From the IMG/VR virus record IMGVR_UViG_3300024247_000672, positions 1-33,256 of that record: a DNA stretch of 33,256 nt; one strand, 5' to 3'. Made by a program: the position numbers and the translations under genes. Below, in pieces: positions 6,301 through 30,498 of this stretch; within the stretch, counting starts at the first letter, position 1; each line of letters opens with the position of its first letter. The DNA is from a virus. Its lineage: Duplodnaviria; Caudoviricetes. The notes under the pieces are model-generated. The model was not told the DNA's origin, searched no databases, and saw only the letters and a list, made by a program, of their open reading frames with translations.

Positions 6301-8610
6301 TTAATGTCCTTCTTTCCAATTGTCAGCTATTTCAGGAGGTGCTTTCAACGTAACTCCAGGTAGTACTAGGTTATTCTCCATTATCTCTTGTACTATAGGA
6401 GCAAAGTCTTTTGCTTGATCTTCTCTAATATTAATTATAAGTTGATCATGAACCTGCGCTTGTACGATTGCATCGATTTTCATCTCTTTAGCTTTACGGT
6501 TGATCTTAAGTGCTGCTCTATTCACTACAGATGCTGCTAATGACTGAAGTTGAAAGTTTAAGCAGTTATTCAAGCCGTTTCTATAATCTCTATATACCTG
6601 CAGTACTTGGTCCTTACCGTATTGCTCAGATAGTTGATTTCTAAATCTCCAGTCCATTATTCTTTCTCCGAACTTCTCATATATTTTAGTAACCTTAGGT
6701 AAGTGTCTAATACGTCCTACATAGTTTTTAATGTACCCATGAGCTTTAACTTGTAATCTAGAATCTTCTCTCCATTTCTTTAGATCAGGAAAACCATCTA
6801 GATAACCTGCTACTAGTTTTTCTGCTTCTTTAGTAGGGATACCTAATGTCATACCTAAAGCATACGCCTCCATTCCGTATGCAATACCTAATGAATAGGC
6901 CTTAGCTTGATTACGTTTGACAGGATCTAACTTCTTTAAGTAGTTGTCAGCTTTTTTATCCGGCGATACTCCTTTCAGTTCTTCAGTTTGTATAGCTACG
7001 GTTGAGTAGAAATCCCAGCCATTATTAAATATCTCCTGTAATTTAAGATCCCCTGTAACTGAAGCAAAGCAATGAGGCTCTAATGATTCGTAATCCGAAT
7101 CTATTACCTTTCTATCTTTTCCAGCAATTAAAAATGCTCTAACAATATTAGTATATTTAACAATGATCGGAGCATCTTCTCCTTCTTCTTTAGGTTTAGG
7201 GAGCTGTTGAGCATCCGAACCGTAACGACCTGATACAGTACCGTGTTGTTTAAAGTAGAAGTAGTATCTACCGTCTTCGCTATTATCTATAAACCTATCA
7301 ACATACGTAGATTTAATCTTAAGTAGTTTATTATATATTCTCAAGTTTTCAGCCCAAGCATAGGTCTTAGCTAAGCTCTCTAACATATCCATATCAAACT
7401 GAGCTTGACCTTTTCTAGTCTTACTCTTAGCTTTAATACCCATATAGTTAAATACAATCTCACCTAAGTGTTTTTTAGATTGTATATTGATATACTCTCC
7501 ATCATTCTTCTCTTTCCAAAGCGACATAGAAATACGGGCTATTTCTATTTCCTCTAATACTGAATTGTCACCTGTTAGTAGGAATTGCTTTGCAGGACTA
7601 TCTTCTAGCTCTTCGATATTCTTTTGAGTAAGAGAATATTTACCAGTCTTTTCCGATTTAGGTAAAGATAGTGAATATCTTTCAGCAAGCTTTTGAGCCC
7701 AGCTACCTTTATGGTTAGGAGGAAAATTATCGAATGCAGTATTCATAACCCATTTTTTAGCTTCAGAAGTTGCTAATAAGCTCTTCATAACTACTCCTTT
7801 ATTCTCCTGTAAGTCTTTAACTATATTATCATGAGTTTCTTGTAATAGGTCCATATCTAAGTCTACTCCGTAGTTTTCCATAGGAATAGTAACTTCTCTG
7901 TATATCGGCATTACCTCATCTTCAAAAAAGAACTTCTCTAGATTCTCTTCCTTAAGTTTAGTAAGGAAGTAGTTACATAAGCGAAGAGTTAAATCCGTAT
8001 CCGCAGATGCATACTTAGATAGTATATCAAGATCTGCTTTATAAATTTCAAAATTAGTTTTTGTAACCTCTCCTCCGTTTTTCTTTATAGAATCCTTAAG
8101 TTCTATTTGCTCTTCATTAGCTGCTTTTTCTACATCTAATCCTATATGCTCCTGTACTGATATAGCTAAGGCTTTTAAACCGAATACTCCCATACCAGCG
8201 CCTTCTTCCTGTACAGTATGAACTAGTAGTAACGTCTCTACCCACAGATCTTCTAATAAATCTACTCCAAAGTAGTTATTAATAAACCTACAGTCAAATG
8301 AAGCATTATGCATTACCAGCTTCTTACCTTTTAACATTTTAAGTAGGTTCTTAGAAATCACTTCTGTACTTTGTCCGTTAATTTCCTGTACTTGCAATTC
8401 ATTTGCTTCATGACTCCATACAAGAGTCGGTAGGTAAAACCCTATACCTTCTGCTCCGGAAATAGACCACCCGACTATCTTTCCTTTTCTCATATTTAAC
8501 GAAGTCGTTTCCGTATCTATAGCAATCACTTCTGATTCTTCTATATGTTGGAACATTAGCTTTAACGTCTCTGAGTCCTGTACTGTGTAATACTTTTTTT
8601 CTATTTGCAT
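6301..8610 (-). CDS. polA: Family A DNA polymerase with 3'-5' exonuclease
   Basis: ExoI AIDTETT, ExoII HNASFD, ExoIII YASADT; motif A DYESLE, motif B RNQAKAYSLGIAYG, motif C VHDQL. Confidence 0.96.
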   Translation of the reverse strand: MQIEKKYYTVQDSETLKLMFQHIEESEVIAIDTETTSLNMRKGKIVGWSISGAEGIGFYLPTLVWSHEANELQVQEINGQSTEVISKNLLKMLKGKKLVMHNASFDCRFINNYFGVDLLEDLWVETLLLVHTVQEEGAGMGVFGLKALAISVQEHIGLDVEKAANEEQIELKDSIKKNGGEVTKTNFEIYKADLDILSKYASADTDLTLRLCNYFLTKLKEENLEKFFFEDEVMPIYREVTIPMENYGVDLDMDLLQETHDNIVKDLQENKGVVMKSLLATSEAKKWVMNTAFDNFPPNHKGSWAQKLAERYSLSLPKSEKTGKYSLTQKNIEELEDSPAKQFLLTGDNSVLEEIEIARISMSLWKEKNDGEYINIQSKKHLGEIVFNYMGIKAKSKTRKGQAQFDMDMLESLAKTYAWAENLRIYNKLLKIKSTYVDRFIDNSEDGRYYFYFKQHGTVSGRYGSDAQQLPKPKEEGEDAPIIVKYTNIVRAFLIAGKDRKVIDSDYESLEPHCFASVTGDLKLQEIFNNGWDFYSTVAIQTEELKGVSPDKKADNYLKKLDPVKRNQAKAYSLGIAYGMEAYALGMTLGIPTKEAEKLVAGYLDGFPDLKKWREDSRLQVKAHGYIKNYVGRIRHLPKVTKIYEKFGERIMDWRFRNQLSEQYGKDQVLQVYRDYRNGLNNCLNFQLQSLAASVVNRAALKINRKAKEMKIDAIVQAQVHDQLIINIREDQAKDFAPIVQEIMENNLVLPGVTLKAPPEIADNWKEGH

Positions 8611-9614: not shown

Positions 9615-10526
9615 TTACTGTCTTAAAGTTTTTTCTATTCTATAATCTGTATTTGTAAAGAAGTCTGGTATTAAACTTTGATGAGTTGCTCTTATAGGAT
9701 TAATATCTAATCCACCTCTTCTAGTATATAGACATGATACCATTAACTGTTCCGGCTTATAAGCATCCATTAAGTGTTTAAACACCATTTCACAAATCTC
9801 TTCATGGAAATGACTTACAGTCCTATGACTAACAATATATTTAGCAAGTGCATCTGCTGCAGGAATATCTCTTCCTTTAATTTTAATAAATACATCTCCC
9901 CAATCTGGCTGGTTAGTTACCCTACAGTTAGATCTAAGTAAGTTAGATTTTAACTTAATCTCTATAGGTTCATCAACTCTATCTTCTATTAATAGTTGAG
10001 AAGAATCTGATTTATATTGTATAAAATCTATTTGATCTAAATCTACTATGTCTCCAAGATCTGAGTAGCCTTCAAATGATATAGCTTTACCTTCATCTGA
10101 AGACTCATAAAAGGAAACTGTAGTACTAGTTTCTAGTAACTCATCTAAATCTCTTTTTACTCTAGCTTCTATAACTGCCATACAGTCTGCTGAGTTATCT
10201 CCTATATGGGTCATATTAAATGAGTTGAGATATAATTTAATTGACTTCGATTCTACGTGGTATTCACTATCCGAAGGACATACAATTTTTAACATACCTG
10301 AAACCGGTAATCCTTTAGAAGTAATTGCTGATACTTCATAACAATTCCAAGTATCTACTCCTACAAAGCTTTCAGATGTAAGTCCGTAACCTTCTCTATT
10401 TAAGTACCTAGGTACTTTTACTAATAATTCAGGAGAGTAAGTATCCTTATAACCATCTCCTCCTACTTTTCCTAAATGCTTAGAAGCAATATCAACTACT
10501 TCTTGATAATTTTTAACGTCTGCCAT
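9615..10526 (-). CDS. queF: NADPH-dependent preQ0 reductase QueF (bimodular, E. coli type)
   Basis: VESKSIKLYLNSF QueF motif, SNCRVTNQPDWG catalytic Cys/Asp, FHEE, YTRRGGLDINP. Confidence 0.95.
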   Translation of the reverse strand: MADVKNYQEVVDIASKHLGKVGGDGYKDTYSPELLVKVPRYLNREGYGLTSESFVGVDTWNCYEVSAITSKGLPVSGMLKIVCPSDSEYHVESKSIKLYLNSFNMTHIGDNSADCMAVIEARVKRDLDELLETSTTVSFYESSDEGKAISFEGYSDLGDIVDLDQIDFIQYKSDSSQLLIEDRVDEPIEIKLKSNLLRSNCRVTNQPDWGDVFIKIKGRDIPAADALAKYIVSHRTVSHFHEEICEMVFKHLMDAYKPEQLMVSCLYTRRGGLDINPIRATHQSLIPDFFTNTDYRIEKTLRQ

Positions 10527-11090: not shown

Positions 11091-11633
11091 TTACTTTCCA
11101 ACTACTTTATTAAGAAAATCTACCCAAAGAAATAGAGATCTATCCCTAGTTACCTTCCACATCTCTTCTTCCGTAATATTGAAAGCATTAAATCTTTCCT
11201 CTGCTAGTATTTTACCTTCGTCTACTCCTGCATCTACTTTATGGAGTACGCATCCCATAACTGGGTATTTACCTTCAAATGCTCTAATCTGTGGATCTTT
11301 ACCTTTAAGTTCCGGATACACTGTAATAAGTCCTGGATGTCCATTAAATATGCTGTACTTTTCACATATAGAAGGAGGCATAATTCTTAACCATCCGTGT
11401 AGTGTTATTATAGGATCCTTATAGAAACCTATAACTTCTTCATAATCCTCTACTAGGGGCTTATTTATTGTTGTTGCTAATAAATTCTGTTCTAGTAAAT
11501 CGCTATTAATCTTCCTAATATTTGAAGGCCTTTCGTTAGTTATTATAGCATCAGGCCAGTAGCCTAATGCATTAGCTATGTCCACTATTTCCGAACCAGT
11601 TTGACTGAAGAATGCTATCCAGGGTTTTCTCAT
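11091..11633 (-). CDS. dpdN: PurN-like formyltransferase, putative dPreQ1 formyltransferase DpdN
   Basis: FSQTGS, LHGWLRI, NGHPG, GCVLHKVDAGVDEGKIL (GAR transformylase fold); located between dpdA and queF. Confidence 0.75.
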   Translation of the reverse strand: MRKPWIAFFSQTGSEIVDIANALGYWPDAIITNERPSNIRKINSDLLEQNLLATTINKPLVEDYEEVIGFYKDPIITLHGWLRIMPPSICEKYSIFNGHPGLITVYPELKGKDPQIRAFEGKYPVMGCVLHKVDAGVDEGKILAEERFNAFNITEEEMWKVTRDRSLFLWVDFLNKVVGK

Positions 11634-11821
11634 TTTATTATATTTTCTATACCTTCGTAAGAAACAGGGTACAGGTGTCTTCCACTTCTTATACTATATT
11701 TAGTATTAAAATTAGAGAAGTTCACATTACCTTCGCTTATTGTTTCTATCACTCCTACTTCTACTTGGCCAATAAAACTAAATTTTACTTTATCTCCTAC
11801 CTTATACTGCTCTCTTTCCAT
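11630..11821 (-). CDS. Small hypothetical protein (SH3-like, YKVGDKV)
   Basis: 63-aa ORF overlapping both neighbours. Confidence 0.6.
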   Translation of the reverse strand: MEREQYKVGDKVKFSFIGQVEVGVIETISEGNVNFSNFNTKYSIRSGRHLYPVSYEGIENIIK

Positions 11822-12602
11822 TTGTAAGCCATTTAAATTTATGAATATTATTTAAAATCAAATTCGTATCTTCCACTTCAAAATTAATAAGCTCATGAAG
11901 CTTTTGTCTTTCTTTTGAGAATAATCCATCTGAACCGTATGGTATACCTTTAATGCCATGTACGACAGGATTACTAGTATCTAGAGAATAAATCCAAGGG
12001 TATTGAGAATAGTATGAAAACTCTTGAGGTAAGCCACAGCCTAGTAAGTGATGAGGTTTATTTTCATTTATAATACCGTCTCTTACTAAATCTCCTAGTA
12101 GCTTAATACGTCCTAGCATCCAACTAACGTACTTGTTAGGATGAGGTATAGAATCGGTATAATACGAATAATCAAAAGATATTGCGATCATATCTACATC
12201 GGCAATTTTATCCATATATTCGTAACATGCTACTATCTGCTTGTATGTCTTACCCTGTACTACACCTATCTTTTTACCGTACACTGATTTTGAATAGTGC
12301 ATATTCCAGCTAGCCATCTGACTCATAGTTTTCTTAGTATCTTCTAATGCATCAGGTACTATGTACCAAGTTGGCCTTAACTCATTAATCCAGTTTGCAA
12401 ACTTATCAGCATCAAATGCTTCTTCTAATTCAAAAATAGAGTTATCTAATATAACTTCTCTACCTTTTTTAACTGCTTCTTTAAACTGGTCTAAGTACTC
12501 TTCATCTTCTTCTAATAAATGTACTAATGCGTAATCATAGTCTGTGTACTTCTGTACATCGTTAAAAATACTTTTAGGACTTTCATGAGCTATTTTAATC
12601 AT
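11802..12602 (-). CDS. dpdA: TGT-fold 7-deazaguanine transglycosylase (DpdA, probably DpdA3-type)
   Basis: ILDNSIFE, IVPD, GVVQG, HHLLG, SLDTSNP match TGT barrel motifs; lies in the que cluster; subfamily is inferred. Confidence 0.8.
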   Translation of the reverse strand: MIKIAHESPKSIFNDVQKYTDYDYALVHLLEEDEEYLDQFKEAVKKGREVILDNSIFELEEAFDADKFANWINELRPTWYIVPDALEDTKKTMSQMASWNMHYSKSVYGKKIGVVQGKTYKQIVACYEYMDKIADVDMIAISFDYSYYTDSIPHPNKYVSWMLGRIKLLGDLVRDGIINENKPHHLLGCGLPQEFSYYSQYPWIYSLDTSNPVVHGIKGIPYGSDGLFSKERQKLHELINFEVEDTNLILNNIHKFKWLTNGKRAV

Positions 12603-12783
12603 CTAATTTTATATCGTTTATTGAGTTACGTAATTCTGCCATTGCTTTTTCAAACTCCTCTGCATACTTTTCTACTTCTGGAGTACTTGCTTCTTTAACT
12701 GCTTTAATTGCTATAGATAGAGGAACCATATCCATTTTATGGCTATCTACATATATTATATGATCCTCTAACTTAATTGGCAT
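12595..12783 (-). CDS. Hypothetical protein
   Basis: 62-aa ORF coupled to neighbours. Confidence 0.6.
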   Translation of the reverse strand: MPIKLEDHIIYVDSHKMDMVPLSIAIKAVKEASTPEVEKYAEEFEKAMAELRNSINDIKLDD

Positions 12784-13300
12784 TAAACAACTTTTTTAGG
12801 TTCGGTCTAAAGTAGTTGATAGACTTCATTACTTTTTTGTCCCTAGATCTATAAACGACGTATCTACTATTAACCTTTTCATAATGACACGGCTCACCCT
12901 GTTCTTTAGCTCGTAAGGTGACAGTCTGTAAGGCTTCTTCCTCAGTAGTGCAAGATTTTGACATATTACTGTCTTGTACCTCTTGATACGCTGGCCATAT
13001 CTGATCCTTAAGGCCGTGTAGCATAACACCGTTCCCAAGGGACACATAAGTAATATCGCACAAAGCATCCAAAACTTCCACGATGTCTCCGTTTTCGCAA
13101 GCTTGTCTATATTCCTCCAATTCTTCGAGTATAAAGTCGTAAACGAATTGCCATTCTTTTTTTTCTGGGATTGTTGGTCCATAGTTGTTCGGTTTTCCAA
13201 AAGTAGTATTAAATGTTTCTACTTCGCTAACAAAAGGTACATAGTCTTTTTCAGACATAGCATCTAATATAGGGAATAATGTTAATTGCTTTCCTTTCAT
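12773..13300 (-). CDS. MazG-like / PRA-PH family NTP pyrophosphohydrolase
   Basis: ILEELEEY, EVLDALCDITYV, EVQDSNMSK. Confidence 0.85.
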   Translation of the reverse strand: MKGKQLTLFPILDAMSEKDYVPFVSEVETFNTTFGKPNNYGPTIPEKKEWQFVYDFILEELEEYRQACENGDIVEVLDALCDITYVSLGNGVMLHGLKDQIWPAYQEVQDSNMSKSCTTEEEALQTVTLRAKEQGEPCHYEKVNSRYVVYRSRDKKVMKSINYFRPNLKKLFNAN

Positions 13301-13301
13301 T

Positions 13302-13505
13302 TTAGTATACTTTTATAATTCTTGATTCTGCAAGGCTAATAATCTTAAAGTTCGTTTCACTTAACTCTTCTAGCATCTTATATGTTTTAGCTTCTGCTTC
13401 TGTTCCTGTCATTGCATCTACTAGGTATATTTCTTTTACTTTCTGTACTCTTCCTCTATCGTTTTCTCTTTCGAATTGAGTAGTAACTTGCCAATAGTTT
13501 GTCAT
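13302..13505 (-). CDS. DUF4494-like protein
   Basis: G..QKVKE.YLVDA.T.TEAEA pattern of the Bacteroidota DUF4494 family. Confidence 0.7.
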   Translation of the reverse strand: MTNYWQVTTQFERENDRGRVQKVKEIYLVDAMTGTEAEAKTYKMLEELSETNFKIISLAESRIIKVY

Positions 13506-13520
13506 AATTTAATTTATTTA

Positions 13521-14234
13521 TTAATGTTTACAAATACTTGCTAATTCTATATTTTTATAGAACTCTGCTTTTGCTGAGTCTTCGTTAAGAAATGCTCCTG
13601 TTAATTTCGCTGTTTGCATAGATGCTCCTCTATGTTTAACTCCTCTACATGATACACAAGCATGAGTTGCATTAATCTGTACTGCTACTCCTAGATTTCC
13701 TTCACATATCTTATCTACAGCATTATGAATAGCTACAGTTAACTGTTCCTGTATAGCTCCTCTTCTACCGAATTGCTCTACTATTCTATTTAACTTAGAT
13801 AACCCTACTACTTTACCGTCTTCTGAGGCTATATAGGCAATACTGACTGTACCGCTAATGGCTTGATGGTGGTGTGAACACATAGAGGTTACAGGTATAT
13901 TACTTTCCTGTACAATACCATCGTATCCATCTGATGGGAATGCTGTAATTCTGTCTAAAGGATTATACCTTCCTGCCCATAGGTCGTTTACGTAAGCTTT
14001 AGCTACTCTAAATGGAGTATCTGATGAGTTAGGATCTTCTTTATAGTCACAGCCTAGAGCGGTTAAAAAATCTGCATAAGCTTTTGCTGCTCTTTCTATA
14101 ATTACTTTCTTTTCATGTTCAGTTAACCTAGCTTCAGGTCCTTCTAATTCTTGCTTTGCAGCTAATTGACTTGATATACCATTTGCATATCCTGCTTTTA
14201 CTAATTCTGTTCCGTCTATAAACTTTTTAGGCAT
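13521..14234 (-). CDS. folE: GTP cyclohydrolase I
   Basis: DTPFRVAK, SMCSHH, VGLSKLNR, IQEQLT, HACVSCRGV; start moved to ATG 14234 because the upstream 12 codons overlap a riboswitch-like leader. Confidence 0.96.
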   Translation of the reverse strand: MPKKFIDGTELVKAGYANGISSQLAAKQELEGPEARLTEHEKKVIIERAAKAYADFLTALGCDYKEDPNSSDTPFRVAKAYVNDLWAGRYNPLDRITAFPSDGYDGIVQESNIPVTSMCSHHHQAISGTVSIAYIASEDGKVVGLSKLNRIVEQFGRRGAIQEQLTVAIHNAVDKICEGNLGVAVQINATHACVSCRGVKHRGASMQTAKLTGAFLNEDSAKAEFYKNIELASICKH

Positions 14235-14242
14235 AAATTTTA

Positions 14243-14269
14243 ATTGTTTTTTTGAGGTTCTACGACTCA
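14243..14269 (-). ncRNA. preQ1-I riboswitch-like aptamer in the folE leader
   Basis: UGAG-UCGUAGAAC-CUCA-AAAAAA-CAAU: P1 stem, U...AG..C loop, A-rich tail ending in C. Confidence 0.7.
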
Positions 14270-14281
14270 TTAATATAATAA

Positions 14282-14292
14282 TAATATAAGTA
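14282..14292 (-). promoter_or_regulatory. Promoter motif class A upstream of the folE leader
   Basis: TTTG...TACTTATATTA. Confidence 0.55.
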
Positions 14293-14299
14293 ATTTATT

Positions 14300-14704
14300 T
14301 TAATTCTCCAAATAATTTTGAATAGTATTTGAATCTTTTTTCTCCCAAGGGTACACTATCCATCCAAAATCATCGTCTATTTCCTCTGCATAGTAGTCGG
14401 GTTTGAATACCGAAGTATTTTTATAATGTAGTGCTGCATACTTAGGAGTATCCAAGTCTTTTTCTAATTCCTTAAATGTTTTTCCTGTATCTGCTATATC
14501 ATCTATTATAAGCATATTAGGGTAGTGGTTACTCATATAGGGCATGTACTGTATGTCAAACCTATGTGAAAACATTATTGCTAATATCGTACCTCCTCTA
14601 GGTACACCTGTAACTAAGCTTACCTTTCCTTTACATTTATCGTATACTTTATCTAATAGTTCGTTAACCTCATCCCAGGTTATAAAGATTTTCTTTGTTT
14701 CCAT
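14300..14704 (-). CDS. Type I purine phosphoribosyltransferase (Gpt/XGPRT-like)
   Basis: ITWDE, GVPRGG, LIIDDIADTGKT (PRPP loop), WIVYPWE. Confidence 0.88.
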   Translation of the reverse strand: METKKIFITWDEVNELLDKVYDKCKGKVSLVTGVPRGGTILAIMFSHRFDIQYMPYMSNHYPNMLIIDDIADTGKTFKELEKDLDTPKYAALHYKNTSVFKPDYYAEEIDDDFGWIVYPWEKKDSNTIQNYLEN

Positions 14705-15724: not shown

Positions 15725-15851
15725 TCTCTAAGTATTTTTTTAATTTATCACATAAAACCAAAACATCATCTGGTTCCATAGTAATTGCGCAACATGTATT
15801 AATGTTTTCTGCTATTGTTTCTAATATTTCTAATGCTTCTTCTTGATTCAC
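15717..15851 (-). CDS. Small hypothetical protein (44 aa, GTG start)
   Basis: Not in ORF track; MNQEEALEILETIAENINTCCAITMEPDDVLVLCDKLKKYLENG; overlaps the queE stop and the next start. Confidence 0.55.
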   Translation of the reverse strand: MNQEEALEILETIAENINTCCAITMEPDDVLVLCDKLKKYLENG

Positions 15852-16639
15852 TATACTTCACGTTGATCTTCGAATGCAATAATGTGCGGTCTCCAAGTCA
15901 TTCTGTAACCGTTATCTCTTACCCAATCGAATACTAATGGGTAGGATTTAAATAACCCTTCTCTAGAATCTCCAGCTGGCATAAACCATACTTTCTCTTG
16001 AGGTACATCCATAATCTTAATAAAATTAAGAATTTCTTCTAATGAACCTTTATCCTTACCGTCCCATACTGGCTTAATATGGTAATCTGAATGGTATGAT
16101 ATTGATTTAGATATAGCATCATAATTAAGTCTAAACTTATTATGTCTTTTTACCATTCTTTCGTCGGTAATGGATCCTTGAGGAGTTTCAACACCAACAA
16201 CGGGGACACTATTACTAAACTTAGGACTAATGCTAAGCAAATTAATAGGATAATCGGTAGGTAGAAAATGAGATCCCTCAGTTTCAATAGTAATGAATAT
16301 ATTGTTTTCATGTGCAAAGTGTGTTAATTCGTTTACTAGAGCAGGATGCATTGTTGGTGATCCACCGGTTAGCATCATTTCTTTTATATGAGGATTATCT
16401 TCATATGCTTTAATAATGTCTTTAAAATTAAAGTGTCCTTTTTCTGGATGTATACTTGTATACCAGCTATCACACCATCCTCCTTCTCCAAAGTAACATC
16501 TATGTGTACATCCTGTAGTTCTAATCACTACTGTTGGATAACCAGCTCTTGATCCTTCTGACTGTACTGCTGTATATATTTCTACGATAGGTAAATTTTT
16601 ATCGTAGTCTTCTATTCTTTTTAATTGTTTATGCGACAT
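15851..16639 (-). CDS. queE: 7-carboxy-7-deazaguanine synthase (radical SAM)
   Basis: EIYTAVQSEG..AG.P.V.IRTTGCTHRC...WCDS, LTGGSP, IETEG, SISPK. Confidence 0.93.
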   Translation of the reverse strand: MSHKQLKRIEDYDKNLPIVEIYTAVQSEGSRAGYPTVVIRTTGCTHRCYFGEGGWCDSWYTSIHPEKGHFNFKDIIKAYEDNPHIKEMMLTGGSPTMHPALVNELTHFAHENNIFITIETEGSHFLPTDYPINLLSISPKFSNSVPVVGVETPQGSITDERMVKRHNKFRLNYDAISKSISYHSDYHIKPVWDGKDKGSLEEILNFIKIMDVPQEKVWFMPAGDSREGLFKSYPLVFDWVRDNGYRMTWRPHIIAFEDQREV

Positions 16640-17093
16640 AAATTGCACTGTTTTTAGCGTGTTCTCTAAATTCTACTTTTGTTATCTTAACTCTTCCGTC
16701 AGTTTCTGCTTCGATAAATGGATTTATACTATCGTAAATAAATTTAGCAAAGCTCTCTGCTCCGGTAGCTGGAATAACTCGTACTTGAGCTACTTTAGCT
16801 AAATCCATTTGCATAAAAGATTCCTTAAATGGATCGTCTTCAGCTACTAAAAAGGTATGGTCAAACATATAATCCATCCATGCTTTAGGAGTCATCTTTT
16901 CTATAGTTCCTTTAGCTCTTTTCATTCCTCCGAAATCCCAGACCCAATTTCTCTCATCTAACTCCCCTTCAAACCATATCTTAAAAGATACTCCGTATCC
17001 GTGTAGTTTAGAGCAATGTGTTGTTGTTGCTTTCCATTGACGAAATACAGTAGAGTATCCGTCAAATACTTTTGTTGATTGAAATTTTCCCAT
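16629..17093 (-). CDS. queD: 6-carboxytetrahydropterin synthase
   Basis: HCSKLHGY, WVWDFG, FDH, AES.A, VEFRE. Confidence 0.92.
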   Translation of the reverse strand: MGKFQSTKVFDGYSTVFRQWKATTTHCSKLHGYGVSFKIWFEGELDERNWVWDFGGMKRAKGTIEKMTPKAWMDYMFDHTFLVAEDDPFKESFMQMDLAKVAQVRVIPATGAESFAKFIYDSINPFIEAETDGRVKITKVEFREHAKNSAIYVA

Positions 17094-17102
17094 AACTTTA
17101 AT

Positions 17103-17342
17103 TTAAACTAATTCTTCTATAATTCCTATTCCTTCACTCAATATGAGTAAACCTACTGCTATATCTAAACTATAACATAATGCAGCATAACCTAAAATAC
17201 GGATACCTGATTTGGCGAAGCTAATTTGTTGATGTAATTTTGGATCTGGAATCTTATGATCATTGATCTTGATTCCTTCGAAGTTCTCTCTTTCTTCTCT
17301 ATTGTAGAGTTCATTCATAACCTTTTTTCCTAATTTATTCAT
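17103..17342 (-). CDS. Small membrane protein, first gene of the queD-queE unit
   Basis: Start moved to ATG 17342; PDPKLHQQISFAKSGIRILGY...LILSEGIGIIEELV hydrophobic C-terminal half. Confidence 0.7.
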   Translation of the reverse strand: MNKLGKKVMNELYNREERENFEGIKINDHKIPDPKLHQQISFAKSGIRILGYAALCYSLDIAVGLLILSEGIGIIEELV

Positions 17343-17345
17343 ATT

Positions 17346-17373
17346 CGTGTTTTTAAAGTGGTGCTGTGACACT
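17346..17373 (-). ncRNA. preQ1-I riboswitch-like aptamer in the leader of the membrane-protein/queD/queE unit
   Basis: AGUG-UCACAGCAC-CACU-UUAAAAA-CACG, ending 3 nt before AUG. Confidence 0.75.
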
Positions 17374-17388
17374 GTACCTATATTATAA

Positions 17389-17419
17389 TAATATAGTGTT
17401 TTTTATTCTAATATGCAAC
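17389..17419 (-). promoter_or_regulatory. Variant class A promoter
   Basis: GTTG...CACTATATTA upstream of the aptamer. Confidence 0.5.
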
Positions 17420-19133: not shown

Positions 19134-19922
19134 TTATAAATATGCAGATAAAACGTTTTCAACGTGTTTTCTTGCTACCTCGTAATCAACTTCTCCAGTT
19201 TCATCCTCATACTGTACGGGATCCTTTCTGCCAAGAGCAATAAAAGCCTCAATCCTCTCAACACTAGAAGCAGACTTATAATCACTATTTCCCGAAGGAT
19301 AAGGCTTATAAGAAGTATTTGTTCTTTTATATACTTCATTAAAATCAATTTTTAATTTAGCGCATAGTATTTCTCCATCTTGCAAAATACCAAATTTATC
19401 AGTATTTAAATAAGGTGTAAAGTAGCCTACTCTATCCGCATCCCAATTTCCCATTCTAAAAGCTGCATCATCTGCATCTCTAAATTCTTGTCTACAATCA
19501 GGATAAACTGCATGGTCACCAGCATGAATACCTAAAGCAATATCACAAACACCTTCTGTTTTATTTGCTACAGATAATGCTACTGCTTGAGTAATAGAAG
19601 CAAACATTTTATTTCTATTAGGAACAACTGTTTCTTTCATATTATCTTGCTCATAATGTCCTTCAGGTACATCTTTACCGCCTTCAGTTAATGCTGAATC
19701 TAATAGATCTACTAATCCATCTAATTTAATTTGACGATAATTTACTTTGTGACCTTTAGTTGCAAGGTAATCAATTAATTGTTGAGCTCTTTCAAGTTCA
19801 ACTCTATGTTTTTGACCATAGTCAAATGAGATACCTGTTACTGTATCATACTCCTCGATAGCTCTTAACAATAGGGTGCTGCTATCCATTCCACCACTTA
19901 AACTAACTACACAATGTGCCAT
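19134..19922 (-). CDS. queC: 7-cyano-7-deazaguanine synthase
   Basis: SLSGGMDS PP-loop, FDYGQKH, VVPNRN, YPDCR. Confidence 0.95.
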   Translation of the reverse strand: MAHCVVSLSGGMDSSTLLLRAIEEYDTVTGISFDYGQKHRVELERAQQLIDYLATKGHKVNYRQIKLDGLVDLLDSALTEGGKDVPEGHYEQDNMKETVVPNRNKMFASITQAVALSVANKTEGVCDIALGIHAGDHAVYPDCRQEFRDADDAAFRMGNWDADRVGYFTPYLNTDKFGILQDGEILCAKLKIDFNEVYKRTNTSYKPYPSGNSDYKSASSVERIEAFIALGRKDPVQYEDETGEVDYEVARKHVENVLSAYL

Positions 19923-19942
19923 AATTTACTTATTTAATTTTT

Positions 19943-19978
19943 GCCAGGTATTTTGAGCGTATAGGCCAACGCTTACCT
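19943..19978 (-). promoter_or_regulatory. Structured 5' leader of queC
   Basis: AGGUA/UACCU and AGCGU/ACGCU nested stems between promoter and start. Confidence 0.5.
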
Positions 19979-29130: not shown

Positions 29131-30456
29131 TTATAACACTAAATTTGTGCTGTATTTAAATTTTACAGGGTATTTCCCTTGTTTTTCCATTATTGTTTGT
29201 ATCTCTGAGAGAGTATCTTTACCGTCTTCTTTACTAAAGTCAAATAAAATTGCATCGTAGGTATATAACGTAATAAATGTCTTTTTATCTCTGAGATATT
29301 TTAGTATATCTTTTAATATAGTGATATTATTTGAGGTTTCCAACGATTGCATCATATAATTCATTAGCTTAGCTGGGTTCATATCCTGGAGTTTATTAGT
29401 AAATGCTTTTCCAGATTGTGGGTTATGTACTTGCCCTGTTTCAATATATAGCTTCCACATTGCATCTATATATTCCTGTACTTCTTTAAATATTTTAAGA
29501 TTTTTATGTTCTTCTGGTATCTTCCCGTATATAGCATGAAAATTAATCTGTTTTGCTCTATTGTACTCTTCTTCGGATATATCCTGCTTACCGAAATACT
29601 GTTTAGCTAACTGTTTATGAGCAGATTCATTAGTTAAGGGGTAATCTAACTGTTCAGCTAATAGTCTTAAGTGGTACCCGTCGAAGTCGAATTCTACAAA
29701 GAAGTCATTCTGCGGTTTAAAACACTGTCTATGTTCGGGTGTTTTAGGAATTGCTGCAAAATTAACAGAATTAAAAGTATTTGTCGGCCTGGAGGTACTA
29801 TTGTATAGGTTGTATTCGGTATAAACAGTATTATCTTCTGTATTATAAAGTGGATTTTTAGGTTTAAATAATTCATTAAATCCATCGTATACAATTCCTA
29901 CACCGTTCTGCTCCAATAGGTAAAATACATTTGTGGTTGTATTATTATAAAAGTCAAAGCCGTCTGGTATTGGAAGTTGTAGGTGTTGTTCTATCTGATT
30001 AAATATATTCTCACATCTCTCGTAGAGTTTGACTATAGGGATTATTCTATTTATGTTATTCTTCTCACTATGTGTACGGTAGTACCAGTCGATAGTTGTA
30101 TTTGAAGTAGAGTACTCTAACCTTTTGTAATTATTCATAGAATATACTAAAGATATATCTATAGCTCTCTGTAGATTAAAGTAGTAGAGAAGTGTTTTCT
30201 TATTTAATGTATAAAGTGTTTGTGCTTTATTTAGAATGTTGTAGATACGTTCTTTATCTACATTAAGTCCATCCTCATGAGATATAGGAACAAAGTACCC
30301 TTGCTTATCTCCTACAACTCTAACATACACTCCTACTGTGGAAGTTAATTTAGAGTGGTAATAGAAGTTGGTACTAACTACATCTACGTATAGAGGGGAA
30401 TTAGTTTGACTTTCTAACCGGTCGATTTGATCTTTTGATTCTAATATATAAAACAC
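29131..30456 (-). CDS. Second, divergent family A polymerase-like protein (degenerate exonuclease domain)
   Basis: TSRP (TGRL-like), motif A EFDFDGYHLRLLA, motif B AKQINFHAIYG, NYMMQS, motif C YTYDAILFD. Confidence 0.82.
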   Translation of the reverse strand: MFYILESKDQIDRLESQTNSPLYVDVVSTNFYYHSKLTSTVGVYVRVVGDKQGYFVPISHEDGLNVDKERIYNILNKAQTLYTLNKKTLLYYFNLQRAIDISLVYSMNNYKRLEYSTSNTTIDWYYRTHSEKNNINRIIPIVKLYERCENIFNQIEQHLQLPIPDGFDFYNNTTTNVFYLLEQNGVGIVYDGFNELFKPKNPLYNTEDNTVYTEYNLYNSTSRPTNTFNSVNFAAIPKTPEHRQCFKPQNDFFVEFDFDGYHLRLLAEQLDYPLTNESAHKQLAKQYFGKQDISEEEYNRAKQINFHAIYGKIPEEHKNLKIFKEVQEYIDAMWKLYIETGQVHNPQSGKAFTNKLQDMNPAKLMNYMMQSLETSNNITILKDILKYLRDKKTFITLYTYDAILFDFSKEDGKDTLSEIQTIMEKQGKYPVKFKYSTNLVL

Positions 30457-30475: not shown

Positions 30476-30498
30476 TAATATACGAAAATATTTCGTAT
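30476..30498 (-). promoter_or_regulatory. Class A promoter overlapped by the palindrome ATACGAAA-ATA-TTTCGTAT
   Basis: TTCGTATATTA at 30476-30486 with GTTG upstream; 8-bp inverted repeat. Confidence 0.55.

Follow-up and report, generated by a model that had tools for sequence, protein, structure and literature searches.

A putative compact class I preQ1 riboswitch upstream of the 7-deazaguanine genes of a marine phage

Gene content of the locus

The stretch of DNA analysed here (hereafter the window; 33,256 nucleotides, IMG/VR record IMGVR_UViG_3300024247_000672) is a fragment of a large Flavobacteriia-type marine phage and encodes the complete set FolE-QueD-QueE-QueC-QueF-DpdA3-DpdN, all on the minus strand. 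The set comprises QueC (19134..19922; PF06508, phrog_1550), QueD (16629..17093; PF01242, phrog_2389), QueE (15851..16648; PF04055, phrog_2076; 82.6% identity to QueE of phage immuto_2-6A), FolE (GTP cyclohydrolase I; 13521..14234; PF01227), a DpdA3-type DNA guanine transglycosylase (11802..12602; 78% identity to the annotated DpdA of immuto_2-6A), a DpdN-type formyltransferase (11091..11633; PF00551; 53% identity to YP_010114479.1, which is called DpdN in PMC10516641) and a bimodular QueF (preQ0 reductase; 9615..10526; PF14819 and PF14489). The QueF translation contains the NADPH motif as given in PMC10516641 (section 12), and this enzyme is the predicted source of free preQ1. It should be added that folE has a phosphoribosyltransferase and a MazG-like pyrophosphatase on its flanks (12773-14704, minus strand) and that dpdN and queF have a thymidylate-kinase-like gene between them, both as in immuto_2-6A. 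Besides a full DNA polymerase at 6301-8610, a second ORF at 29131-30456 (minus strand) also matches DNA_pol_A, though weakly (E 7e-10).

Upstream of queD, on the same strand, lies a gene for a hypothetical phage protein of 79 amino acids (ORF79, 17103..17342), whose stop codon precedes the queD start by 10 nt. Its C-terminal half is hydrophobic; no Pfam or PHROG match was obtained, and the Atlas matches were to unnamed viral clusters only. Many of its 285 homologues are exactly 79 amino acids long, which supports the start at 17342. In many of these phages ORF79 stands at the head of queD or next to it, and its product may belong to the pathway as a small membrane component.

The element and its second copy

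Directly in front of ORF79, at positions 17346-17373 of the minus strand, we found a 28-base element consisting of a 4-bp hairpin with a 9-nt loop and an A-rich tail. The 5' strand of the stem (P1) occupies 17373-17370, the loop 17369-17361, with the predicted specificity C at 17361, and the 3' strand of P1 17360-17357; then follow a 7-nt, A-rich L3 (17356-17350), the tail C at 17349 and the last three bases (17348-17346). Three nucleotides separate the end of the element from the AUG of ORF79 at 17342. The letters and the P1 pairing are exactly those given in the preliminary description of this DNA, and the pairing between loop and tail proposed there is likewise possible, through the predicted P2 pairs G17364-C17349 and C17366-G17346. 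The same description placed the element upstream of queD-queE: it does head that gene run, however the gene immediately next to it is ORF79. A second copy, with a different P1 and a 6-nt L3, lies at 14243-14269 (minus strand), and there the tail C is 11 nt from the AUG at 14234, the probable folE start.

A class-I-like descriptor, composed with the finding already in view, returned exactly two sites in the window, namely these two copies, and none of 500 dinucleotide shuffles of the window reached two sites (mean 0.006), in agreement with the earlier claim that the only two such elements in the window are not due to chance. The 9-nt loop pattern by itself was at chance level (two seen, 1.24 expected). 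Calculated folding energies showed the hairpin to be marginal and no better than shuffled sequences (z between -1.2 and +1.0), and the predicted minimum-energy fold of the copy at 17346 has another register, in which the specificity C is paired. Such poor stability fits a fold stabilised by its ligand, yet gives no support for that fold.

Conservation and covariation in relatives

Among 120 loci fetched via QueD or ORF79, a relaxed descriptor produced 67 matches, all of them on the coding strand and, except for one at a contig end, all just upstream of ORF79, queD or folE. A scan of the collection with a pattern of loop, tail and closing G-C pair only (127 of about 380 stretches listed) gave 106 distinct matches among those listed, of which 35 could form a 4-bp Watson-Crick P1. 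L3 was 7 nt long in each of these 35 listed stem-bearing matches, and 33 of them were located directly before folE (11), ORF79 (19), queD (2) or queE (1), the remaining two being unplaceable; none of the 71 listed stemless matches had a que gene in its locus. With a tighter scan the stem was present in 85 of 90 matches, 80 of these 85 being placed, and of the 90 stem-bearing matches on metagenome contigs, 81 could be assigned a place in front of ORF79, folE or queE. The sequences are related, so that the scan matches are not independent of each other.

Two of the four P1 pairs covary, while the closing G-C pair was fixed by the search patterns. In 49 distinct sequences the outer pair was A-U in 33, G-C in eight, U-A in seven and unpaired in one, and the third pair was U-A in 37 and A-U in 12. 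Doubly changed cells numbered 33, against 6.9 in shuffles (0/500), and slid controls were far lower. The P1 arms take five forms among the relatives, while the asymmetric loop and the tail stay constant. The statement that P1 changes and still pairs thus holds both between the two copies of the window, the stem arms of which differ, and in the wider set. It should be noted that alignment A1 left out seven non-que matches, one of them the chance match L207, and that A2 left out L454.

The folE leaders fetched by protein alone (n = 45) offered a view in which loop length, AC, AG, A-run and C were none of them demanded. A 4-bp hairpin was present in 31 of them and a 3-bp form in one, 12 had none and one was cut off; the element was accordingly lacking in 12 of the 44 untruncated leaders. 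In all 31 hairpin-bearing leaders the loop was 9 nt long with AC at its end, loop positions 10-11 read AG, and 6-8 nt past the stem came a C preceded by an A-run, which bears out the conserved loop and tail of the preliminary description. Immuto_2-6A carries the element before folE (NC_055915, 32363-32392) with a third stem sequence.

No bacterial source of the element emerged from an exact scan covering 185,579 species genomes, which returned six matches. Two of these were on a contig with the phage genes inside a MAG, two were antisense within an amylase-type gene and two were without full stem or que neighbour. A looser pattern matched 91 of 401 Bacteroidota-group genomes, which by inspection of the table was below the reversed control and concerns pattern matches only. 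A contig filed in a Verrucomicrobiales MAG (L388/L389) has an ORF79-queD-queE-folE block with both copies of the element and is probably a misbinned phage contig. Finally, 18 seawater RNA runs contained part of the stretch, and in three of the four inspected the element was covered into the upstream gene; these contigs, which may be DNA, are silent on strand, level and 5' end and were not counted as evidence.

Pseudoknot and a variant form

The P2 pair between loop G11 and the tail C is possible throughout the 49 sequences, where it is invariant by construction. The outer P2 pair was U-A in 25 of them, C-G in six, U-G in six and unpaired in 12, and the C-G form may represent a single event. 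In record G516 (L561), which is positive for QueF and DpdN, the folE leader near 2216 (minus strand) has the same stem and a variant element: the loop starts with UU, A replaces G11 and the tail C has become U, so that the G11-C pair is read as A-U and P2, in our reading of the sequence, consists of four Watson-Crick pairs and is fully complementary. This variant was missed by model R1. A search for further variants with UU and A-U left G516 as the single example, 14 of the 15 stem-forming matches to the variant pattern having no que-cluster gene adjoining. Exceptions to the common form are CC in L016 and U7 in L832, L844 and G516.

Position relative to translation and transcription starts

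In 101 of 102 contexts the tail C stands 4-12 nt before an AUG, and in the same proportion (101/102) the tail covers the initiation region. The length of L3 stays within 6-8 nt while the distance to the AUG ranges from 4 to 12 nt, which ties the tail to the hairpin. A Shine-Dalgarno (SD)-like word was present in none of 101 contexts, and the A-run overlapped positions -14 to -11 in 100 of 101. In F. johnsoniae, adenines at -3, -6, -12 and -13, together with low structure, favour initiation (PMC6847099).

Two observations had been named beforehand as speaking against a riboswitch, namely translation through the element from GTG 17372 and a transcription start downstream of the aptamer, and neither was borne out. 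Among the 75 contexts containing the GTG, an open in-frame reading from it exists in only six. The ATG at 14270, in frame in the window, is likewise probably not the folE start, being in frame and open in one of 16 contexts having it. With regard to transcription, 64 of the 102 contexts have a predicted promoter-like motif 11-26 nt ahead of P1. Its sequence is similar to the Bacteroidota -7 element over the first six bases, without the last two, and it has 17 minus-strand copies in the window, eight of them in the 4.3% that is intergenic (spacers at 30484, 28636, 19988, 14290, 11080, 9085, 5747 and 2554). In F. johnsoniae the -7 promoter element lies 4-5 nt before the transcription start (PMC6847099). 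Upstream of the 17346 copy there is a weak promoter-like site at 17388..17395 (minus strand; six of eight bases of the Flavobacterium -7 consensus), from which we infer a transcription start near 17383, upstream of P1. This site does not match the stricter motif of the folE and queC leaders, and the exact host -7 consensus is absent from every spacer. A sigma-70 promoter scan, the wrong promoter type for Flavobacteriia hosts, was at chance level (33 vs 33.0). Terminator-like sites were not present near either copy.

A second motif before queC

Another motif was detected in the queC leader (19941..19974, minus strand), with a covarying stem of 4-5 bp and a possible bulged pseudoknot. Its stem reached at least four pairs in 78 of 112 distinct matches to the loop and tail pattern, and the motif stood directly before queC in 73 of these 78, compared with one of the 34 other matches. 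Three stem pairs covary across the 78 sequences. Two 3-bp helices flanking a bulged CCU could form between loop and tail, the bases concerned being fixed by the search pattern. No Rfam family matched. The motif is present in 39 of 50 records examined (one being a chance match), including the complete QueF-less genome G510 and immuto_2-6A. It is a candidate for a new riboswitch class, possibly sensing CDG or preQ0, or for a QueC operator. The complete, QueF-positive genome G503 has neither motif and shows a different long hairpin just before queC (L071).

Association with QueF

In the same 50 records, which were hand-picked with long contigs favoured and are mostly fragments, element and QueF occurred together in 30, the element alone in one, QueF alone in three and neither in 16; the element was thus found in 30 of 33 QueF-positive and one of 17 QueF-negative records. 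Many records had been found via the element itself, and so the positive cell is inflated. The single record with the element only (G484) is a contig that ends about 1 kb past it, and the three with QueF only include G516 and the near-identical pair G503 (complete) and G504. The 16 double negatives include the chance locus L405, which was left out of the tree, and the truncated G514. Neither the complete QueF-less genome G510 nor phiST, which has no QueF, carries the element, and it was seen in none of the ten QueF-less records in which the folE leader could be read; truncation alone does not therefore explain the pattern.

A tree of 49 rows built on QueC, QueD and QueE shows eight changes of state for the element and ten for QueF. 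Across six independent pairs QueF changed in the same direction as the element in 5.3 on average and never in the opposite one (median p 0.0625). Though short of significance, the association favours preQ1 or formyl-preQ1 over preQ0 as the ligand. In immuto_2-6A guanine is replaced by formyl-preQ1, and the QueF of two other tested phages makes the free preQ1 base (PMC10516641; the latter in section 12).

Proposed switch and alternative explanations

Our overall reading, to which we assign a probability of about 0.7, is that the element acts as a compact class I preQ1 riboswitch whose ligand switches off translation of the first gene of the 7-deazaguanine transcripts. As far as sequence comparison goes, the riboswitch proposed in the preliminary description is upheld by the covariation of P1, the class I pocket bases, the pathway genes and the tracking of QueF; the Rfam PreQ1 check suggested there did not detect the element, even at E 10. 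Without ligand, the weak hairpin would leave the A-run and the adenines before the AUG free, and these free adenines would serve as the initiation signal used by Flavobacterium ribosomes. Free preQ1, supplied by the phage QueF, would pair with the last C of the loop and stack on the closing G-C pair, whereby the A-run and the tail would be drawn into a small H-type pseudoknot and the initiation region hidden. Repression of queD-queE at this locus would have to pass via ORF79, by translational coupling or polarity. The benefit might be feedback on the GTP-consuming first steps during replacement of guanine by formyl-preQ1. A type I switch still represses with its SD moved up to 10 nt off (PMC11625349, section 9), and this tolerance makes control without an SD plausible. 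With regard to size, an engineered 30-nt E. coli type III aptamer, the outer P1 pair of which is unformed in the crystal, binds with a Kd of 52 nM (PMC10622847).

Alternative explanations differ in the ligand, in the nature of the binding partner or in the level of control. The same fold and switch might respond to another guanine-like ligand, be it preQ0, formyl-preQ1 or guanine expelled in bulk by DpdA3, which we regard as unlikely. Type II pockets bind preQ1 > preQ0 > guanine with a preference in Tte of only 17-fold, the shorter P1, L2 and L3 could shift selectivity, and the phages encode DpdN, whose substrate may be the base or DNA; QueF and DpdN occur jointly in all 17 records checked, for which reason the QueF association cannot separate preQ1 from formyl-preQ1. 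However, the floor G that bonds the aminomethyl group is retained, and preQ0 is an unlikely main signal given that the QueF-less relatives with FolE, QueD, QueE and QueC have no element in the folE leaders read (10/10). That a phage protein (a pathway enzyme, DpdA3 or ORF79) binds the hairpin loop as a translational operator, with no small-molecule pocket, appears quite unlikely to us, although the hairpin is small and weak, its loop is conserved, the start codon adjoins it and the element is confined to one phage group and not found in bacteria. What stays invariant is the set of positions in contact with preQ1 in solved structures, whereas other parts of the loop vary; the tail C keeps a constant distance from the stem, and the scan of the genes brought up no candidate RNA-binding regulator.

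Binding of preQ1 could also act on transcription, by pseudoknot-dependent pausing or polarity; for the type II switch of B. subtilis, effects on both pausing and termination are described (PMC11625349, sections 9 and 11). No more than about 15 nt separate the element from the predicted 5' end, and queD, placed behind ORF79, would be more simply controlled through RNA; with no terminator-like site near either copy and the initiation region covered by the tail in all contexts but one of 102, we nevertheless judge this very improbable. Least credible of all is an origin of the pattern in DNA or in coding sequence, that is, an inverted repeat bound by a regulator as an operator or promoter part, or the coding start of a longer ORF. 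A 4-bp inverted repeat does lie just downstream of the promoter-like motif, and GTG 17372 and ATG 14270 are both in frame in the window, yet the arms vary in five forms around a constant asymmetric loop and tail, the descriptor matches are on the coding strand in 67 of 67 cases, and the internal starts are in frame in only 6/75 (GTG) and 1/16 (ATG) contexts.

We further propose, tentatively and at rather less than even odds, that these phages run the guanine replacement of their whole genome under a two-sensor RNA circuit of their own, made up of the preQ1 aptamer and a candidate new riboswitch class in the queC leader. The aptamer, with 27-28 nt below the natural aptamers in the cited literature, would gate the SD-free initiation of folE and queD-queE, and the queC motif, kept in QueF-less relatives, would sense an earlier intermediate (CDG or preQ0).

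Were the preQ1 riboswitch real, a lytic phage would meter its own DNA-modification pathway through a metabolite-sensing RNA, and the size limit of natural aptamers would drop to 27-28 nt. The ligand also bears on which pool accumulates in the fdPreQ1 pathway, free preQ1 or formyl-preQ1. Immuto_2-6A on Flavobacterium sp. LMO8 is a cultured phage-host pair with both motifs and would be cheap to test. A phage preQ1 riboswitch was not found reported in the phage-riboswitch literature; McCown 2014 and the supplement of Weinberg 2017, which lay outside the scope of that search, could list these sequences, perhaps as the 'que-2' motif. In the accessible text of the phage paper PMC4342423, the word 'riboswitch' occurs in the references only. 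A translational riboswitch in an organism not using SD, as this one would be, has been predicted and called hard to find (PMC11625349, section 11).

Comparison with known riboswitches

The element shares several features with class I. Its P1 covaries and is closed by a G-C floor pair, the closing G-C being demanded by the searches; the specificity C and the tail A-run are present in all 31 hairpin-bearing folE leaders, the U at the loop start being demanded; and it is situated in the 5' leader of preQ1 synthesis genes, as far as the predicted transcription start allows. These agree with the class I pocket features described in PMC11625349 (sections 4 and 8), which match those kept in the folE leaders. 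P1, however, has 4 bp in 85 of 90 contexts and exceeds this in none, with a possible fifth pair in only a few sequences, as against 5-6 bp in the three solved types (PMC10622847).

Rfam scans of the window and of both leaders, or with RF00522 and RF03081 alone, gave nothing near the cut-off. RF00522 is strict, in that only one of its 16 matches at E 0.01 in 81 Clostridia genomes was above its own cut-off; model R1, in turn, found none of these 16 matches at their sites. The element has neither the UU loop start nor the UC before the 3' strand that belong to the two-ligand pocket of type I, and it lacks the platform of types II and III, which is SD burial or an intrinsic terminator. With a P1 of 4 bp, no such platform and RF00522 blind to it, we have not filed it in a named type; judged from its bases, it would work like a class I type II aptamer while sharing the 9-base loop of type III.

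The likeness to preQ1-I type II (T. tengcongensis, B. subtilis; RF00522) extends to the closing G-C floor, a loop starting with U then C, C at loop position 7, AC before the 3' strand of P1, the predicted pair between loop G and tail C, the A-rich L3 and the location in a preQ1-gene leader. A Clostridia match to RF00522 (L519; 31 bits) has nearly the same loop and tail as the phage element, from which it differs in P1 (5 vs 4 bp in the phages), loop (10 vs 9 nt) and L3 (9 vs 6-8 nt). Unlike type II, the phage element has no SD or terminator, is phage-carried, would serve DNA rather than tRNA modification and is missed by RF00522. With type III (E. coli yhhQ leader, PDB 8fza) it shares the nine bases between the floor pair G5-C15, the AC and the compactness, and the G516 variant comes close through its UU start and fully complementary P2 with an A-U pair. 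In contrast to type III, the common phage loop begins with UC and has purines, P2 hides no AAGG, and the length is 28 nt vs 36 nt (wild type) or 30 nt (engineered); furthermore, type III is almost confined to gammaproteobacteria, whereas the element is found in phages.

DUF805 RNA (RF03081) likewise has a 4-bp stem followed by a very similar A-rich tail, matching the window at 17323-17377 (minus strand), but its loop is different and the match scored 12.9 bits vs a cut-off of 51.1; RF03081 had no match at E 1 in two whole records. The resemblance hints that this small fold may extend to DUF805 RNAs. For comparison, phage immuto_2-6A has the same gene set and the same order from queD to queF, with DpdA 78% and QueE 83% identical; the main text of PMC10516641 makes no mention of a riboswitch in it. 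It carries one copy of the element, before folE, where the window has two.
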